The notes beneath the pieces are model-generated. The model saw only the letters and a program-made list of their open reading frames with translations. It had not been told where the DNA came from and did not search any database. 62,880 nt of DNA, taken from NCBI GenBank assembly GCA_964437835.1, contig CAYTJA010000187.1:1-62880 (forward strand), given 5' to 3'. Source of the DNA: an uncultured Spirochaetales bacterium. GTDB taxonomy: Bacteria > Myxococcota_A > UBA9160 > SMWR01. Shown here one piece after another: positions 9,076 through 34,753 of the stretch; positions within the stretch are counted from its first letter, which is position 1, and every line of letters starts with the position of its first letter. Position numbers and translations under genes: made by a program.

Positions 9076-9627
9076 TCAGAGCGCTCGCTGTGCGGGCAGC
9101 TCTGCGATCAACACGAGCAGCAGCTCGGGCTCGCAGCCCTGCGCGCGGAAGCCGAGTTCGATGCGCACTGCGCGCGCCCCGAGCCGCAGCCGCTCGCGCC
9201 TGCGCGCGAGCTCCCGCTCGGGCGGTCCGGAGACCAGGCGCGGGATCGAGGGCAGGATGCGGCCCGCGAGCGCGTCGGCGAGGCCCGAGACGACCTGCGA
9301 CGCGACGATGTTCGCGAGCTCGATCAGGAGCAGGCGAGGCGCTTCGGATGCGCCTGCGCCGGCGCTCGCGGCTGTTGGACCGGCCGTCTCGCGCAGCAGC
9401 AGTGCGATGCAGCCCACGGCGTCCCCCTCGAGCTCGAAGTACACGCCGGCGCCCCAATCCGGCGCCAGCGGCGCGCAGAGATCGACCTGCGCTCCGGCGT
9501 CCGCCGACAGCGGCCGCTGCCAGAGCTGCTCGAAGGCCAACGCGGCGCCTTCGGCGCGCGGGGCAATCGCTGCGAGCCATGCGTCGGCGAGGGTCATCGG
9601 AGTGAATGCGCGCGCGCTCGTGCCCAT
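9076..9627 (-). CDS. cheC: CheC-like phosphatase (DifG-like position)
   Basis: One ELANIVASQ...ILPSIP CheC-type motif; follows cheA; ATG at 9627. Confidence 0.7.
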   Translation of the reverse strand: MGTSARAFTPMTLADAWLAAIAPRAEGAALAFEQLWQRPLSADAGAQVDLCAPLAPDWGAGVYFELEGDAVGCIALLLRETAGPTAASAGAGASEAPRLLLIELANIVASQVVSGLADALAGRILPSIPRLVSGPPERELARRRERLRLGARAVRIELGFRAQGCEPELLLVLIAELPAQRAL

Positions 9628-9629
9628 CC

Positions 9630-11335
9630 CTACACCAGCTGGTTCAGATCGAGCAGGAAGACCGGACGCCCGTCGCCGAGCAGCGTGAGGCCGGCCAGGG
9701 CCTTCAGCCCCGCCAGCAGCGGCGGCACCGGCTTCACGTAGATCTGCTCCTGGCTGTGGACGCGATCGACGCACAGCGCGACGCGTTCGCCGCGCACGTC
9801 CGTGAGCAGCAGGGTCAGCACCTCGAGCCCGGCATCCCGCGGCAGGCCGGTGCGCGCTGCGGCGCCGGGCGCAACCGGGGCGATCGCGTCGCGCAGGAAG
9901 AACAGCGGCAGGGGCTCGCCGTCGACGAGCGCGAAGGCCTCGCGCGCGGCGATCTCGACCTGATCGCGCCGCACCTCGACGATGCGCTCGACGCGTGCGA
10001 CCGGGATCGCGCTGCGGCCGCCGCCGGCGTCGACGATCAGCACGCGCTGGACCGCGGCCGTGACCGGCACCACGAGATCGATCGCCGTGCCGACGCCGGG
10101 TTGGCTGGACAGCTCGACCTGGCCACCCAGCGCCTCGATCGTGGAGCGCACCACGTCCATCCCGACGCCGCGCCCCGAGACCTCCGAGACCTTCCGCGCC
10201 GTCGACAACCCCGGGTGGAAGATGAACGCGATGATCTGCTCGGGCGGCAGGTCGCAGGCCAGATCCGGGATCACCAGCCCCGCCTCGATCGCGCGCTCGC
10301 GCACGCGCTCGAGATCGACGCCGCCGCCGTCGTCGCGGATCGAGATCCGGATCGAATCGCGATCGCGCGCCGCATCGATCCGGATCCGGCCGATCTCGGG
10401 CTTGCCGCGCGCGACGCGCGTCGCGACGGGCTCGATCCCGTGATCGACGGAGTTGCGGATCACGTGCACGAGCGGATCCGAGAGGCGATCGAGGATCGAG
10501 CGGTCGAGCTCGACGTCGGCATTTCGGATCTCGACCTCGACGCGCTTGCCCAGGCGTTGAGCGAGGTCCCGCGCGAGGCGCGGCAGCGGTTCGAGGATGC
10601 GCTCGAGTCGCGTGGTCCGCAGCTCGAGCGCGCGCCGCTGCAGCTCTCCGACGACGCGATCCATGCGGTTCAGCCGGCTCTCGAGCTTGGCCGGAGCCGA
10701 GTTGCGGCGCGCGGCGGTCGTGCGCAGCTGATTCGACGAGAGGATCACCTCGCCGACGGTCGAGAGAAAGCGATCCAGGACTTCGGTGCGGACGCGTACC
10801 GTCGCGGGCGGCTTCGGCGCCTCCGGGTTGCCGCGGCGCGGTCGCGCTTCGGGCGCCGCCGCGGACTCCGGGACGGGTCCCTGCTGCGCGGGCGCCCGGT
10901 CGGCAACCGCTGCCGCAGCGGCCGCCGCAGCCTCAGCTCCGGTCAGCGCCGGCTCGTCTGCGTCCCGGCCGATTTCAGGCTTTTTTTTTTGAGCGCGGTC
11001 TGCCGCGGAGGCGCTGCGCCGCTGCTGCGCACGCCGGCGATCAGCGACTCGAGCTCTTCGAGGCCTGCAAAGACCGTCGCGAGCTCTGCGGCTTCGGCGC
11101 GACCGCGCCGCCGGATTTCCTGCATGTGACTCTCGAGCTCGTGGGCGGCCTCGGCGACCGAGGCGTAGTCGAGGGAGCCGGCCATGCCCTTGATCGAGTG
11201 CGCCATCCGGAAGACCAGATCGATCGACTCGGCGTCTGCCGCGTCCTTCTCGAGCGCGAGCAGACCCCGCGCGAGCTCGGCCAGCTGATCGGCCGCCTCC
11301 TCGAGAAATACCACCCGGTAACGCGCCATGTCCAT
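9630..11335 (-). CDS. cheA: Chemotaxis histidine kinase CheA, split by a frameshift at an A10 tract (Hpt ORF 10943-11335; dimerisation/kinase/CheW domains in the -1 frame)
   Basis: Hpt MAHSIKG; after the tract the -1 frame reads KPEIGRDADEP...TVRVRTEVLDRFLSTVGEVIL, then HVIRNSVDHGIE, DDGGG, FHPGLST, SGRGVGMDV and a CheW domain. Confidence 0.9.
10981..10990 (-). other. A10 homopolymer (coding strand) at the cheA frame junction; candidate slippage site or assembly error
   Basis: T10 on + strand; codons CTC AAA AAA AAA AGC; one extra A joins the two ORFs. Confidence 0.7.
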
Positions 11336-11378
11336 GCTCGAAGCCCTGACCTCGCCGCTTTTCCCAGGCGTTCCGCGC

Positions 11379-11750
11379 CTAGCCCTCGAGCTTCTCGACC
11401 AGCTTTCGCAGCGTCGCGAGGACTGCGGCCGGCTTGAATGGCTTCACGATGAAATCGCGCGCTCCGGCTGCGAGCGATTCGGCCACCAGCGACTCCTGGC
11501 CGAGCGCACTGCACATCACGACGCAGGCCTTCGGGTCGAGTTGCATGATCGCCTTGAGCGCGTCGATGCCCGACTTGCGCGGCATCACGATGTCCATCGT
11601 CACGATGTCCGGCTGGAGCTCGCGGTAGCGCTCGACGGCCTGCACGCCGTCGGAGGCTTCGCCCGCGACCTCGAAACCCTCCTCCTGCACGATCTCTTTG
11701 ATCATCATCCGCATGAAGGAGGCGTCGTCCGCCACCAGGATTCTCGCCAT
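11379..11750 (-). CDS. cheY: Single-domain response regulator CheY (DifD-like)
   Basis: DDASFMR, VTMDIVMP phospho-Asp, MCSA, IVKPF. Confidence 0.93.
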   Translation of the reverse strand: MARILVADDASFMRMMIKEIVQEEGFEVAGEASDGVQAVERYRELQPDIVTMDIVMPRKSGIDALKAIMQLDPKACVVMCSALGQESLVAESLAAGARDFIVKPFKPAAVLATLRKLVEKLEG

Positions 11751-12236
11751 CTAGGAGTCCCCTTCCCGCGTCGGCGCAGTGGTGCCGCTCGCAGCACTCG
11801 CGTTTGCGATCAGCTCTCGCGCGCGCGCGAGCAGCCGCTGTGGGTCGATCAGGTTCGCCATGCGCCCACCCAGATTCCGGCGCTCTGCGATCGGACTGGC
11901 GCCGCGTGCCTGCGCGGGCCTTCCGGGCGCGAGCCCGATCACGCGGTCGACCGGCAGCCCGAGGCGGCTGCCTTCGCCCTCGCTGCCGTCGGTCACGACC
12001 ACGAGCTGGGCCGCCGGCTTCGCCCCCTCGGACACTCCGAGCAGCGCCGACTGCGAGAGCACCGGCAGCGCGTCGCCGTGATGGTTCACGACGCCGCCGA
12101 TCTCGATCGGCAGCGTCGGCACGAGCGAGAGCGGAGCCGCTTCGGCGACCTCGAGCACGCCGACGATCGGCAGCGCGTAGAGTGAGCCAGCGAGCTCGAA
12201 GGTGAGCAGGCGGTCCTGGGCGGCAGCGGAGCTCAC
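11751..12236 (-). CDS. cheW: CheW adaptor
   Basis: [15 protein letters not shown]...EVAE...VPTLP...[12 protein letters not shown]...LGLPVDRV. Confidence 0.88.
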
Positions 12237-13513
12237 TCGGGTTGCTCCAGCGGCAGCGCGGGCCCGGTCTTGAGCCGGCGCAGATTCGACTGCAGCGCCT
12301 CCGTGCGCGACGCCACCGCGCCGGCGACCTCGCGCAGGCGCTCCATCGAGCTCTCCTGGCTGCGGGCCGTCGTCGTGACCTGCGCCAGCGCCTGCGCGTT
12401 TCGCGCCTCGACCTGCTTCAGCGCATCCATCGCCGACACGATGCGCTCGACATCGCGCGCCTGCGCGTCGGCGCCCTCGAAGATCTCCTCGCTGCGGGCG
12501 GCCGCCTCGCCGACCGCCGAGCGGATCTGCTCGAGCGAGCTCGCGATCGTGTCGACGTCCTCACGACCCTCGCCGACCACGACCCTCGACTCGCGCATCT
12601 GGTCCGCGACCTCGCCGGTTCCGGTCTGGATCTCGTCGACGAGCTTCGCGATCTCCTCGGCCGAAGAGCCGGCACTCTCGGCCAGCTTGCGGATCTCCTC
12701 GGCGACGACCGAGAAGCCGCGCCCCGCCTCCCCGGCGCGCGCGGCCTCGATCGAGGCGTTCAGCGAGAGCAGGTTCGTGCGGTGCGCGACCTCGGTGATC
12801 ATCTCGGTGATCTGATGCACGTGGCGCGTCTTCTCCTCGAGCTCGAAGACGCGCGCGACGACCTGCTCGACGCGCTCGAAGACCGTGCGCATCTTCTGGA
12901 TCGCGAGGCGCGTGATGTCGACGCCGCTCGCGGCCTTCTGCGTCGCTTCGGCGGCGAAGCCGAAGGCCTCGCGCGCGCGCGCCGCGTTCTGCTCGATCGT
13001 CGACGCCATCTCGTGGATCAGCTGGTTCGCGTCGAGCAGGAGCCGCTGCTGCTCGGCGACGCTGTCCGAGAGGTGGGTGACGGTCGCGGCGATGTCGCGA
13101 TTCCCGACGCCGAGCCGGTCGACGGCGCGCAGCAGGTCCTGCGCGGTTTCGGAGACGCCGTTTGCGTTGCCCTGGGCGCTTCCGAGCAGCGCCGAGAGGT
13201 TCGCGGCCATCTCGCGCATGCTGCCGCAGAGCTCGCTCGTCTCATCGGGGAAGCGCTGCGGCGACAGCGACGGCTGCACCGAGAGGTCCCCGCGGCTGAC
13301 CGATCGCGCGGTATCGCGCAGCGCGCGCGTCGCCGCCGCAAGCGGTCGCGCGAGCCAGTAGCCGAGCACCGCGCCGCCGAGCAGCCCGAGGAAGGGCACG
13401 GTTCCGGAAGTGACGAGGATGCCCGCGGCCGCGAGCAGGTCCGGCAGGAAGAGCGCTGTGCAGCCCACGAGGACCGCGCCGAGCGCGCACTTCTGCGAGA
13501 GAGGGAGCCGCAC
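12233..13513 (-). CDS. Methyl-accepting chemotaxis protein (DifA-like, two close TM helices, HAMP)
   Basis: [36 protein letters not shown] signalling tip; hydrophobic N-terminus. GTG start at 13513 is inferred. Confidence 0.92.
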
Positions 13514-13619
13514 CGAGGAACTATCGGAGGTCGGAGGCGCGCGCTTGATCCGGGCCCCCCGCGGCGCCTCGAGCGGCAACCCATGCGCAGGCACGCTGCA
13601 GCCCCCGCGAGCACGGACG

Positions 13620-14624
13620 TCAGAAGTGCCTCCAGCCGGCGCCGGGGTGGGGGGCGGGACGCGGGCGCCGCGCTGCGGGCTGCTCGCGCAGGCCGCCGAC
13701 CTCGCTGACGGCAACTCCGAGCCGGCGCGAGAGATCCGCTGCGCAGGGAGCGCTGCGCCGAACCGCGAAGAGCAGCTCGTAGTCCTCCCCGCCGCCGAGC
13801 AGCAGCGCCGCCGGGTCGGCCCCGAGGCGCCTGCATAACGCGTCGAATCCGGGCGGGCGCGGCACGCGCAGGGGGTCGATCCAGGCCTCGAGCTGCGCGC
13901 CGCGCCGGCGCGTCTGGCCGGCGCGCGCGAGCTGCGCGGCATCGGAGGCGAGGCCATCGGAGAGGTCGATCACGCCTCCGAGCCAGCGCTCCCCGCTCTC
14001 ACGCAGGCGCGCGAGCGCCCGGCCGACCGCGAGGCGCGGCGTCGGCAGCTGCTGGATGCGTCGCCCTTCCCGCTCCGCGCGCAAGAGCGCCAGCGCTGCG
14101 CCGCCGAGCGTGCCGGTGACGCAGAGTCGATCGCCCGGGCGCGAGCCGCTGCGCCGCAGCGCCGCGCCGCGCGGCACCGAGCCCAGCACGGTCAGCGCGA
14201 GCGAGGTCTCGCGGGCGCGCGTCAGGTTGCCGCCCACGAGCGGCGCCCCGAGCGCGGCGCCCTCTTCCGCGACCCCGCGCAGCAGCGCGTCGAAGCGCTC
14301 GAGCGGCAGCTCTGGCGGAGCCGCGAGTGCGCAAGTCATGCCGAGCGGGCGGGCGCCCATCGCCGCGAGATCCGAGAGCGCCGCGAGCGCGGCGCGGCGC
14401 CCGATCCAGCGCGGGGACTCGCTTTGCCAGCGGAAGTGCACGTCTTGCACGCGCGCATCGGAGCTCACGACGAGTTCCTCGCCGGGCGCCATCCGCAGCA
14501 CCGCTGCGTCGTCCCCGATGCCGAGCGAGACGTGCCGCTGCGGGCCGGCCTGCGCCTGCACGAGCCTCCGGATGCGTTCGACGAGGCCCTGCTCGCCGAC
14601 CTCCGCGAGCGTGGGAGGAGCCAT
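13620..14624 (-). CDS. thiL: Thiamine-monophosphate kinase
   Basis: [46 protein letters not shown]. Confidence 0.95.
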
Positions 14625-14918: not shown

Positions 14919-17342
<2,424 letters not shown>

Positions 17343-17500
17343 CCCCGCGCGTTTCGTCGGCGCGAGCGGGCGACTTGAGATCGGCGATCCGACCGGCACG
17401 GAAGTGTCGCGCAGACACCTGTGCAGCGCGTGCGCAGCGCGCCGACCCGCCGGCGCCGAAGCCGAGCTGCCACTTCGGCCGGCCCTCGCTGCGGAACCTG

Positions 17501-19573
17501 CTAGGGCCCGATCTGGACGAAGTCCTTGCCCTCGACGCTGATCAGGAAGGGCCGCTTGCGCGCGTTGCCGTCCTCGGCGATCGAGATCACTCCCGACGCG
17601 CCGGGGTGGCCGCGCAGCTCGCGCAATCCGTTCCGCAACTCTTCGCGCGAGTCCGCGCCGTGCGCGAGCTGCAGCAGCGCGAGATTTGCCGCGTCGAAGG
17701 CCTGGGCCGAAAATTCGTTCGGCTGGGTCTGGAAGGCCTGGCTGTAGTCGCGCGTGAACTGCTGCACGAAGGAGGTCGGGCTGCCCGGGAAGTAGTGAAC
17801 CGGGAAGACCGCCTTCTGCACGTGCTCGCGCGCGAGCCGCACCAGCTCCGGTGCATACCAGCCCGAGGCGCCGAGCAGCACCGCGCCCTTCACCTCGTGG
17901 AACGCGAGCTGCGGCGCGATCAGCACGATCTGCTCGTGCGAGGCGGGAATGAAGAGCGCGTCGAAGTCGACGATCGGCGGCAGCGGCGCGCCGTCCGGCG
18001 CGGTCATCGCCTTCGCCTCGGCGACCTGCACACGCGCCTCGCCGGCCGGGAGCCGCCGCGCGTGCGCGAGCAGCTTCCCGCGCTTCTCGAGCGCGGCCCG
18101 CTCCTCGGGCGAGAGCAGCTCGTAGCCGACGAGGCGTTTGATCGGCCCCGCGAAGTCGGTGCTGCCGGGCTCGAAGCCGGCCGCCGCGACCACGCTGCCC
18201 CCGCGCGCGAGGACGGCGTCCCAGAACAGCGCGCGCAGTCCGAACCCGTACTTGTCCTTCGGATACAGGATCGCGAAGCGCCGCGCGCCGAGGGCGCCCA
18301 TCGCGTGCTCGACGACGGCCTCGACCTCTTCGCGCGGCGTCGTGCGCAAGCGGAACACCTGGCTGCGGCCGCTGACGAGATCTTCCTTCGAGTTGAGTGC
18401 GAGCAGCGGGATCCCGGCCGCCTCGGCTTCGCTGGCTGCGGCTTCGCACTCGTCGGAGACCAGCGGACCGACGATCGCCGCGACTTCGGAATTCCCCGCG
18501 AGCTCTCGCACGGCCTCGGCCGCGCGGTCGCCGCGGCCTGCGGTGTCGCGGATCAGCAGCCGGACCTCGGAGCGGCTCGCGGCCGGGTCGCCTCCGAAGA
18601 CGCCCGCGGCGAGCAGGATGCCCTCGAGGCTCTGCTGGCCGAAACGCGCGAGGCGACCCGACAGCGGCAGCACCACGCCGAGGGTTCCGCGCGCCCGCGA
18701 GACGTCCGGACTGCCGGCGCCCTCGAGCTCTGCGAAGGCCGGCAGCCCCGCGAGAGCCGTCGGCTGCGAGGCCGGGCCGCCAGACGTGGCCCGCCGCAGC
18801 CGCTCGCTGACTGCCGCATAACGCGCTGCCGCCGCCGGCGTGAGCGGCAGCTCGCCGGCCTCTTCCACGGCGTGCTGTGCCATCAGCGTGTCGCCCTGGT
18901 CGAGCGCCCGCTCCGCGGCCGCGATCCAGACCGGGCCGGCCGCCAGCTGGCGCTCGAGCGCCTCGGCGGCGCGCAGATGCTCGTGCAGCGAGAGAGCGCG
19001 AGCGGTGGCGTCGATCTCCGCGTCGATGCGCGCGAGCGCCGGCTCGCTCTGCTCCTCGCCGCGCAGCTGGGAGAGCCAGCGCAGCTTCTGCACCGGGTCG
19101 CTCACCGCATCCGCGAGCAGGCGATAGGCCTCGCGGCGCTGGCCGGGCTCGAGGCGTGAGAAGCGCAGCCGCTCGAGCAGCGCGGCCGCCTTCGCGGGCT
19201 GGCCCTGCTGCACCAGGAGTGCCCCGAGCCGCAGGCGCGCGGTGTCCGCGTGCTGCGAATCCGAATGGCGGTCGAGCAGCGTGCGGTACCAGTGCTCCGC
19301 TTCCGTCGGGCTGCGCCGGCGGGCCGCGAGCTCCGCGAGGCGCATCGACGCATCTGCCGCGAGCGAGCCGTCGGGGTACTGTACGAGGAACTGGCGCAGC
19401 GCGCGCGCCTCGGAGTCGGGCTGCGGCTGCGCGAGCGCCTGCTGGTAGGCGCGATGCTCGGCCTCGCCGGCTTCGGGCCGTGGCGTCGCGCAAGCCCACG
19501 CCAGAAGCGCGGCGCAGCCGAGCGCGGCGCAGCTCCGGCGCAGCTGCAGTGACTGCTCGCGCATGGACCGCAT
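17501..19573 (-). CDS. LpoA/LppC-like lipoprotein (TPR-like N-terminus plus periplasmic-binding-protein domain)
   Basis: Lipobox LAWAC; FLVQYPDGSLA TPR-like repeats; LGVVLPLSG, AIVGPLVS, AQAFDAA. Start at 19573 or 19564. Confidence 0.8.
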   Translation of the reverse strand: MRSMREQSLQLRRSCAALGCAALLAWACATPRPEAGEAEHRAYQQALAQPQPDSEARALRQFLVQYPDGSLAADASMRLAELAARRRSPTEAEHWYRTLLDRHSDSQHADTARLRLGALLVQQGQPAKAAALLERLRFSRLEPGQRREAYRLLADAVSDPVQKLRWLSQLRGEEQSEPALARIDAEIDATARALSLHEHLRAAEALERQLAAGPVWIAAAERALDQGDTLMAQHAVEEAGELPLTPAAAARYAAVSERLRRATSGGPASQPTALAGLPAFAELEGAGSPDVSRARGTLGVVLPLSGRLARFGQQSLEGILLAAGVFGGDPAASRSEVRLLIRDTAGRGDRAAEAVRELAGNSEVAAIVGPLVSDECEAAASEAEAAGIPLLALNSKEDLVSGRSQVFRLRTTPREEVEAVVEHAMGALGARRFAILYPKDKYGFGLRALFWDAVLARGGSVVAAAGFEPGSTDFAGPIKRLVGYELLSPEERAALEKRGKLLAHARRLPAGEARVQVAEAKAMTAPDGAPLPPIVDFDALFIPASHEQIVLIAPQLAFHEVKGAVLLGASGWYAPELVRLAREHVQKAVFPVHYFPGSPTSFVQQFTRDYSQAFQTQPNEFSAQAFDAANLALLQLAHGADSREELRNGLRELRGHPGASGVISIAEDGNARKRPFLISVEGKDFVQIGP

Positions 19574-19622
19574 GCAAGCCCCCCCCGTGGCCCTGGCCCG
19601 CGACCGTAGCGATTCCAGAATA

Positions 19623-28814: not shown

Positions 28815-28891
28815 ACCGCTGTTCTCAGCAGATCCACGGCAGCGCCCGCGCGTGCTACGGGTCTACTCCGGTCGCAGGGGGGGGAATCGGC

Positions 28892-34677: not shown

Positions 34678-34753
34678 GGCCCGGTAGCTCAGTTGGTAGA
34701 GCACGCGACTGAAAATCGCGGTGTCGGCAGTTCGATTCTGCCCTGGGCCACCA
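34678..34753 (+). tRNA. tRNA-Phe (GAA)
   Basis: 76 nt: GGCCCGG acceptor stem, TAGCTCAGTTGGTAGAGC D-arm, CT-GAA-AA anticodon loop, GTTCGATT T-loop, encoded CCA. Confidence 0.97.

Follow-up and report, generated by a model that had tools for sequence, protein, structure and literature searches.

An out-of-frame A-run conserved in cheA of Myxococcota is probably a programmed recoding site for free Hpt and full-length CheA

Introduction

Is a histidine kinase gene whose two halves lie in different reading frames a broken gene, a sequencing artefact, a switch, a pair of separate genes or one gene that is read in two ways? This question is raised by contig CAYTJA010000187.1 (assembly GCA_964437835.1; 62,880 nucleotides (nt), analysed as a whole and hereafter called the window) of an uncultured Spirochaetales bacterium placed by GTDB in Myxococcota_A. 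In this contig the gene of the chemotaxis kinase CheA changes frame at a run of ten A's located just after the sequence that encodes its histidine phosphotransfer (Hpt, P1) domain. An earlier note, made from the sequence alone, had proposed either programmed slippage that yields free Hpt plus full-length kinase or an ON/OFF switch, while allowing for a homopolymer assembly error. Comparison with orthologs indicates that the A10 tract is most probably a conserved programmed recoding site in cheA and not a lesion, and that free Hpt and full-length CheA would both be made from it.

Results

The cheA gene is located on the minus strand, with its ATG at 11335. In the mRNA sense, the sequence 3' of the Hpt domain reads ...gcg ctc AAA AAA AAA Agc ctg aaa ... 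tga; its A10 tract (10981-10990, minus strand; T10 on the plus strand) is the proposed slippage or recoding site and carries the heptamer A_AAA_AAA in the zero frame at 10982-10988. The zero-frame open reading frame (ORF; 10943-11335, minus strand) encodes 130 amino acids (aa), consisting of the Hpt (P1) domain (Pfam Hpt at residues 6-101, that is, 11033-11320) and the tail KKKSLKSAGTQTSRR. It stops at a TGA (10943-10945) 12 codons past the last full AAA and represents the predicted short product of unslipped mRNA. The -1 frame (9630-10991, minus strand), reading cAA AAA AAA AAg cct gaa, is open from 5' of the run down to a stop at 9630-9632 and leads through an Ala/Pro linker into P3, P4 and P5. 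The core frame is joined to the Hpt frame by one additional A in the mRNA or by a -1 shift of the ribosome.

When one A was added to the run (A11), the product was 568 aa long, and four Pfam families were found in it above their cut-offs: Hpt (residues 6-101), H-kinase_dim (178-238), HATPase_c (287-426) and CheW (432-567). This is the domain order of a CheA histidine kinase, and the gene lies within a che operon. The dimerisation domain (P3) occupies 10623-10805 and contains the first possible start of the -1 frame (GTG, 10746-10748); the kinase domain (P4), in whose translation the N, G1, F and G2 box motifs were seen, occupies 10059-10478; and the CheW-like domain (P5) occupies 9636-10043, all on the minus strand. 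No P2 domain was detected in the A11-corrected CheA, and the full-length product would be a P2-less CheA. Downstream of the shift there are no further stops and the domains are all intact. The heptamer, the 130-aa Hpt-only frame, the open -1 frame of about 568 aa, the lack of any other lesion with all motifs kept, and the restoration of the frame by A11 or A8 had each been described in the earlier note and were borne out; its placement of the feature was likewise right, though the interval that it gave (10943-11335) is that of the Hpt ORF and not of the tract alone.

The A11-corrected protein was used as a probe to collect 80 loci from species-representative genomes and 80 from metagenomes, almost all of them from Myxococcota or 'Deltaproteobacteria' metagenome-assembled genomes (MAGs), and 156 loci were classified by tblastn framing and run detection. 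An A-run of A7 to A11 was carried by 126 loci, at a homologous position approximately 350-440 nt from the start, and was out of frame in 111 of the 126. The kinase core is in the -1 frame in 98 loci (36 with A7, 10 with A8, 15 with A9, 36 with A10 and one with A11) and in the +1 frame in 13 (eight with A7, four with A9 and one with A10), while the run is in frame in 12 loci, with A10, and 30 loci, which include a Geobacteraceae-type outgroup, have a continuous gene without the run. No frameshifted locus without an A-run was found among the 156. The heptamer A_AAA_AAA is in the zero frame of the window and of every -1 locus. In the run-less orthologs the position equivalent to the KKK of the run, where AAG might stand for AAA, was sought, but the linker does not align. 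As a separate observation, one locus (L052; MFD10007.bin.2.207) shows a second frame change at the C-terminus (query residues 544-567), away from any A-run; in this long-read-looking MAG it is probably an assembly indel.

The closest relatives share the arrangement in full. The sister locus L081 (79% identity; on a 174-kb contig of the Joint Genome Institute, JGI) has A10 at the same 345-nt offset, in the same phase and with the same -1 relation. L161 (Hpt 94% identity; Logan contig SRR22387798) has the same operon with A10 in the same phase and the -1 relation, and a 73%-identical match in three separate JGI metagenome assemblies (L162-164) has in each case A10, the same phase and -1. The ortholog check thus supports programmed slippage to free Hpt and full CheA as put forward in the earlier note.

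In a neighbour-joining tree of 150 corrected proteins, the run is placed at the base of a large Myxococcota clade, within which A7 -1, A8 -1, A9 -1, A10 -1, A7 +1 and in-frame A10 loci form monophyletic sub-clades, and a few secondary losses are seen. Among -1 loci outside the window's lineage, the run always ends at codon position 3 regardless of its length (A7 in phase 2, A8 in phase 1, A9 in phase 0, A10 in phase 2 and A11 in phase 1). With the end of the run fixed in this manner, its length must have changed mostly through substitution at the 5' edge, which keeps the frame relation, and not through indels.

These patterns bear on phase variation, under which the tract length would switch CheA ON and OFF in subpopulations and the assemblies would show the OFF allele. 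A10 tracts are mutable, and a small number of A9 +1 loci branch among loci that are A10 -1. Moreover, L142 and L143 (PVMS01021104.1 and PVMK01126948.1), with the run 437 nt from the ATG and identical 200-nt flanks, differ in having A10 (-1) and A9 (+1), respectively, which is either a real within-species tract polymorphism or a sequencing difference. Some instability of the tract at the DNA level thus exists. However, the out-of-frame state is the consensus of the run-bearing loci and 98 of the 111 share the -1 relation; A7, a length poorly suited to phase variation, occurs as often as A10; tract length was equal in 11 of 12 near-identical locus pairs; the fixed 3' end of the run outside the window's lineage points to 5' substitution; and early stops are conserved in the short-product frame, while putative stimulators adjoin the short runs (both described below). 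A length polymorphism in which closely related strains frequently carry either the ON or the OFF allele was not found. An ON/OFF switch, the alternative offered in the earlier note, is therefore disfavoured and appears quite improbable.

Search with the Hpt ORF gave 317 matches at E<=1e-5, of which the best 120 were all Hpt-only ORFs of 122-184 aa, and the phospho-accepting His motif FRMAHSIKGMA was kept in all matches inspected. In public metagenomes the two cheA halves are annotated as separate genes. An exact-sequence look-up of the 130-aa ORF returned no record, and the exact DNA pattern with variable run length had zero matches in the genome contigs collection; the genome of the window is itself absent from the collections searched. 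It was also observed that JGI labels many of the 122-184-aa Hpt-only ORFs as 'two-component system chemotaxis sensor kinase CheA'.

The tract is exceptional for its sequence context. The window has a G+C content of 70.4%, and A10 is its sole A/T homopolymer of at least 7 in 62,880 bp, in agreement with what had been noticed before. In dinucleotide-preserving shuffles of the window A10 occurred in 0 of 100, and A7 matches averaged 0.15 per shuffle. Lysine is encoded by AAG 39 times and by AAA four times in the other genes of the window, and by AAG 1032 times and AAA 103 times in cheA outside the run at the ortholog loci. Furthermore, zero other A/T runs of at least 7 were found in 783 kb of GC-rich DNA flanking the ortholog loci; two A-runs that had seemed additional turned out to be this cheA site at loci with a truncated N-terminus (L109 and L146). 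Base composition, shuffles and Lys codon bias together exclude a chance origin of the A10.

Both halves of the gene are under purifying selection. The ratio of non-synonymous to synonymous substitution rates (dN/dS) in pairs of shifted loci was 0.11-0.35 for Hpt and 0.13-0.38 for the core in its shifted frame, with values of 0.22 and 0.24, respectively, between the window and L081. These values, far below 1 downstream of the shift, argue against decay, and neither relaxed selection nor further lesions were seen. A one-base miscount in a homopolymer of 10-11 nt would indeed give the same pattern in a single assembly, yet A10 recurs in six assemblies of the lineage (the window counted), the feature is present in more than 100 orthologs, some of them with accurately sequenced A7 runs, and the flanks are devoid of comparable runs. 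A sequencing or assembly error is thus effectively refuted, and such an error or a recent inactivating mutation (a pseudogene) is hardly credible as the origin of the split gene.

The positions of stop codons carry a signature of two products. Among shifted loci, the median distance from the run to the first stop is 16 nt in the zero frame and 127 nt in the third frame (p=6e-9), and 82% of the loci have their zero-frame stop within 30 nt. In the in-frame A10 clade, where standard decoding leads into the core, the -1 frame, into which one extra A leads, ends 5-29 nt past the run, usually at 5 nt, while the +1 frame is open for 88-493 nt. Two products therefore appear to be selected.

The two frames meet only at the run. 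The core frame is open from before the run in all loci except L100 and L110 (both A9), where it opens inside the run, the first two A's of which form part of a TAA in that frame. With the zero frame terminating 13 nt past the run in these two loci, the change of frame must take place within the run or the next 13 nt, before the zero-frame stop. The run is the only place able to join both frames in every locus. These observations also bear on a bipartite CheA, in which Hpt and the P3-P4-P5 core would be separate genes and the core would have a start of its own. 'Hpt encoded as a separate gene' has been suggested generally to mark a bipartite CheA, and P1 set free from the kinase reportedly works in trans (PMC10782961); automatic gene calling also yields two ORFs here, with the core of L161 called from a GTG. 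In the window, however, the codon called as that GTG is GTA, and the first ATG, GTG or TTG of the -1 frame is GTG 10748, already inside the dimerisation domain; likewise 84 of the 111 shifted loci offer no such codon in the core frame anywhere from the run to P3. In addition, two separate genes would explain neither why the A-run is conserved, nor why the two frames overlap exactly there, nor why a clade with in-frame A10 exists. A bipartite CheA is accordingly very unlikely, and one gene recoded at the run is the reading retained below.

The features flanking the run were then compared between run lengths. For each locus, the 45 nt 3' of the run were folded and upstream pairing to the anti-Shine-Dalgarno (anti-SD) sequence was scored, both being expressed as z relative to windows of the same gene. 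Around short runs (A7-8; n=48) mean z was -1.75 for the downstream hairpin and -1.21 for the upstream SD-like motif, while around long runs (A9-11; n=68) both were 0.02 (Mann-Whitney test of short against long runs: hairpin, p=9e-11; SD-like motif, p=2e-9). The short-run hairpins begin at +6 to +8 past the run (the extreme being L136, with a 19-bp stem and -51 kcal/mol), and a GGAG(G) motif peaks 3-7 nt 5' of the short runs. For the A10 of the window (n=1), z was 0.25 for the hairpin and 0.34 for the SD-like motif. A stable 3' stem-loop 5-9 nt downstream was not found there (the 61 nt downstream had z of -1.06 relative to shuffles, the values for the two flanks being -1.06 and -0.03), nor was an upstream SD-like stimulator, the best anti-SD duplex reaching -2.8 kcal/mol. 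RNAalifold gave no consensus for the A7 -1 group, whose alignment is broken by linker indels, and only a short consensus stem for the A8 group, so that per-sequence folding with same-gene controls was relied on.

As long runs, that of the window included, are without both stimulators, the window, if recoded at all, belongs somewhat more probably than not to the RNA polymerase-slippage class of recoding sites. Its anatomy also matches the Thermus dnaX type, with an A/T homopolymer of roughly 9 or more and a conserved arrangement of run and frames with a nearby stop for the short product. Faithful transcription and translation would give the 130-aa free Hpt (P1), ending 12 codons past the run, and a fraction of expression events would shift by -1 to give the full 568-aa CheA (Hpt-linker-P3-P4-P5). 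In the window the main route would be slippage of RNA polymerase on the T10 template, adding one A to some transcripts, with a -1 ribosomal slip on A_AAA_AAA as a possible contributor.

The same two products would arise if -1 programmed ribosomal frameshifting on A_AAA_AAA were itself the main route in the window. The tract does offer the X_XXY_YYZ heptamer (A_AAA_AAA) in the zero frame, as does every -1 locus, and the hairpins at +6 to +8 and SD-like motifs of its short-run relatives form the classic stimulator layout of such frameshifting. Both stimulators are nevertheless absent (z about 0) from the window and from its closest relative L081, as from the long-run class, and the +1 and in-frame configurations seen across orthologs would be more easily tolerated with mRNAs of several lengths. 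Ribosomal frameshifting as the main route is thus unlikely, and slippage of the polymerase is preferred for the window.

Several points weigh against this preference. Slippage itself, like the machine that slips and the ratio of products, is deduced from comparative anatomy alone. The contrast in stimulators is partly phylogenetic, since A10 loci nested in the A8 clade keep the hairpin and the SD-like motif; in a basal clade, the SD-like motif accompanies short runs and is missing from sister loci with long ones. Covariation in the hairpins is weak, most pairs being invariant; in the hairpin of the +1 clade only one position varies, among C-G, U-G and U-A. The SD-like motif, at 3-7 nt from the run, is closer than the SD of E. 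coli dnaX, with its spacing of roughly 10-11 nt, and could reflect conserved Pro-Glu codons. The near-identical pair L142 and L143, with A10 and A9, respectively, is a further difficulty.

A last point against is the +1 sub-clade (A7 in L011, L062, L063, L106, L117, L123 and L130; A9 in L116), which has canonical -1 signals yet needs a +1 or -2 shift. Its zero frame presents a perfect A_AAA_AAG, then one codon and a TGA. It also has the strongest SD-like motif (-10.3 kcal/mol; GGAGGG 5 nt upstream) and a conserved 9-bp hairpin from +8. The core, however, is read in +1 (equivalent to -2), and -1 continues without a stop for approximately 127 nt. Full-length CheA in these loci needs a -2/+1 ribosomal event, or a transcript that loses one A or gains two.

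The che cluster of the window is compact, in the order MCP, CheW, CheY, cheA and a 232-aa ORF. Its first gene encodes a chemoreceptor (MCP; HAMP and MCPsignal domains) at 12233-13957, its true start being probably inside the listed ORF, and is followed by cheW (11751-12236) and by cheY (receiver domain; 11379-11750), which is directly upstream of cheA in the same operon. The 232-aa ORF (9076-9774) is directly downstream of cheA and overlaps its 3' end as listed; all of these are on the minus strand. No Pfam match was found for this ORF, in which ELANIVASQVVSGLADALAGRILPSIP fits the CheC/CheX-type E-x2-N-x22-P phosphatase motif; a 183-aa gene is called at the matching place in L161. No Rfam family was found at the A10 site, and a promoter and terminator scan of 10700-11400 on both strands gave no signal, so that the T10 of the plus strand is not an antisense intrinsic terminator. 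Elsewhere in the window, the only detected RNA gene is a tRNA-Phe (GAA) at 34678-34753 (plus strand), and the only other homopolymers of at least 8 are C8 at 19579-19586 and G8 at 28877-28884. The C8 adjoins the upstream end of a very long listed ORF (14919-19577, minus strand), the C-terminal part of which looks like Lon protease.

Discussion

The consequences of two products can be considered at the level of signalling. Because liberated P1 has been reported to be functional in trans (PMC10782961), the free Hpt could act as an extra phosphotransfer substrate, a shuttle or a sink between the kinase and the adjacent CheY. The phosphate-sink role and the 'set ratio' of products suggested in the earlier note may be viewed likewise, as conjectures from sequence.

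A wider reading of the family, which we put forward tentatively and hold as slightly less than an even chance, would unite the observed variants. An orthologous site would have been kept across a large Myxococcota radiation while alternating between two mechanisms (ribosomal for A7-8 with stimulators, polymerase for A9-11 alone) and among three frame relations (-1, +1 and in frame), fixing or perhaps tuning, with growth state or nucleoside triphosphate pools, the ratio of free P1 to CheA. A diffusible excess of P1 would serve as shuttle, buffer or sink, and the +1 sub-clade would use a -2/+1 shift promoted by canonical -1 signals.

The mechanism class is known, and the cheA gene family is new to it. 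No description of recoding in cheA or Hpt was found in the review of Atkins 2016 (PMC5009743), the GeneTack survey with its supplements, a CheA architecture survey or full-text searches, whose coverage leaves out most subscription journals. If the proposal is true, a widespread cellular family would join the short list of conserved bacterial recoding outside mobile elements (dnaX, prfB and cso2) and would be the first such case in a chemotaxis kinase. The metagenome ORFs annotated as 'Hpt-only' or 'N-terminally truncated CheA', which number in the hundreds, would then be mis-called halves of one gene. The family also offers a natural comparative series (A7 to A11; -1, +1 and in frame; with and without hairpin) for ribosomal frameshifting versus polymerase slippage in evolution, and it raises the signalling question of what a cell gains from a phosphotransfer domain that is both free and tethered to its kinase.

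Among known kinases, CheA-S of E. coli derives from an internal start and is without the phospho-accepting His, and is thus the opposite product, and CheA3 and CheA4 of Cereibacter sphaeroides are encoded by separate genes; neither pair arises by recoding. In common with the present case, however, CheA-L/CheA-S and CheA3/CheA4 distribute a kinase over two polypeptides that differ in P1, and P1 works in trans (PMC10782961). A closer likeness in product is the rcsD frameshift of Yersinia pestis (PMC10191623), where a phosphorelay gene gives a small free Hpt as well as a full-length protein and signalling is altered; that change is a lineage-specific mutation and concerns a C-terminal Hpt, whereas the cheA site is an ancient conserved homopolymer after an N-terminal one. 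Poly(A) slippage in Shigella mxiE/spa and in endosymbionts resembles the proposal for cheA in that RNA polymerase slipping on an A/T run brings an out-of-frame gene back into use or lengthens its product (PMC5009743). Those cases occur in AT-richer or decaying genomes and the endosymbiont ones are often 'corrective', while the cheA run is unique in a 70% G+C genome and conserved over deep divergence.

The nearest parallel is dnaX, which shows both arrangements, runs of 9 A/T being an efficient substrate for RNA polymerase slippage (PMC5009743). The A7 and A8 cheA orthologs resemble dnaX of E. coli (A_AAA_AAG, upstream SD and downstream stem-loop) in having the heptamer in phase, a stem-loop at +6 to +8 and GGAG(G); they differ in the closer SD-like motif (3-7 nt from the run) and the weak hairpin covariation, and the window is without both stimulators. 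In some lineages it is the long form of dnaX that arises by frameshifting, with a stop directly after the site (PMC5009743), and most cheA loci are of this kind, in that the long product would require a shift and a stop is near the site. In dnaX of Thermus thermophilus (tau/gamma, slippage on 9 A/T), as in cheA, a long A/T homopolymer is set in GC-rich coding sequence; no RNA stimulators are needed there, and mixed mRNAs give full-length product and a product truncated at a nearby stop (PMC5009743). The polarity of Thermus is seen in the cheA clade with in-frame A10, where the long product would result from standard decoding and a transcript with one extra A would run into a stop, usually 5 nt on; its nearby stop is in the -1 frame only, not in both non-zero frames, and slippage is inferred here. 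Further differences from Thermus are that cheA encodes a chemotaxis kinase and not a clamp-loader, and that the long product would need the slip in the window and most orthologs, the reverse of the Thermus polarity. By analogy with dnaX, cheA would thus have a reversible architecture in which the non-standard event may yield the long product or the short one, the two exchanging roles upon a change of one nucleotide (PMC5009743).

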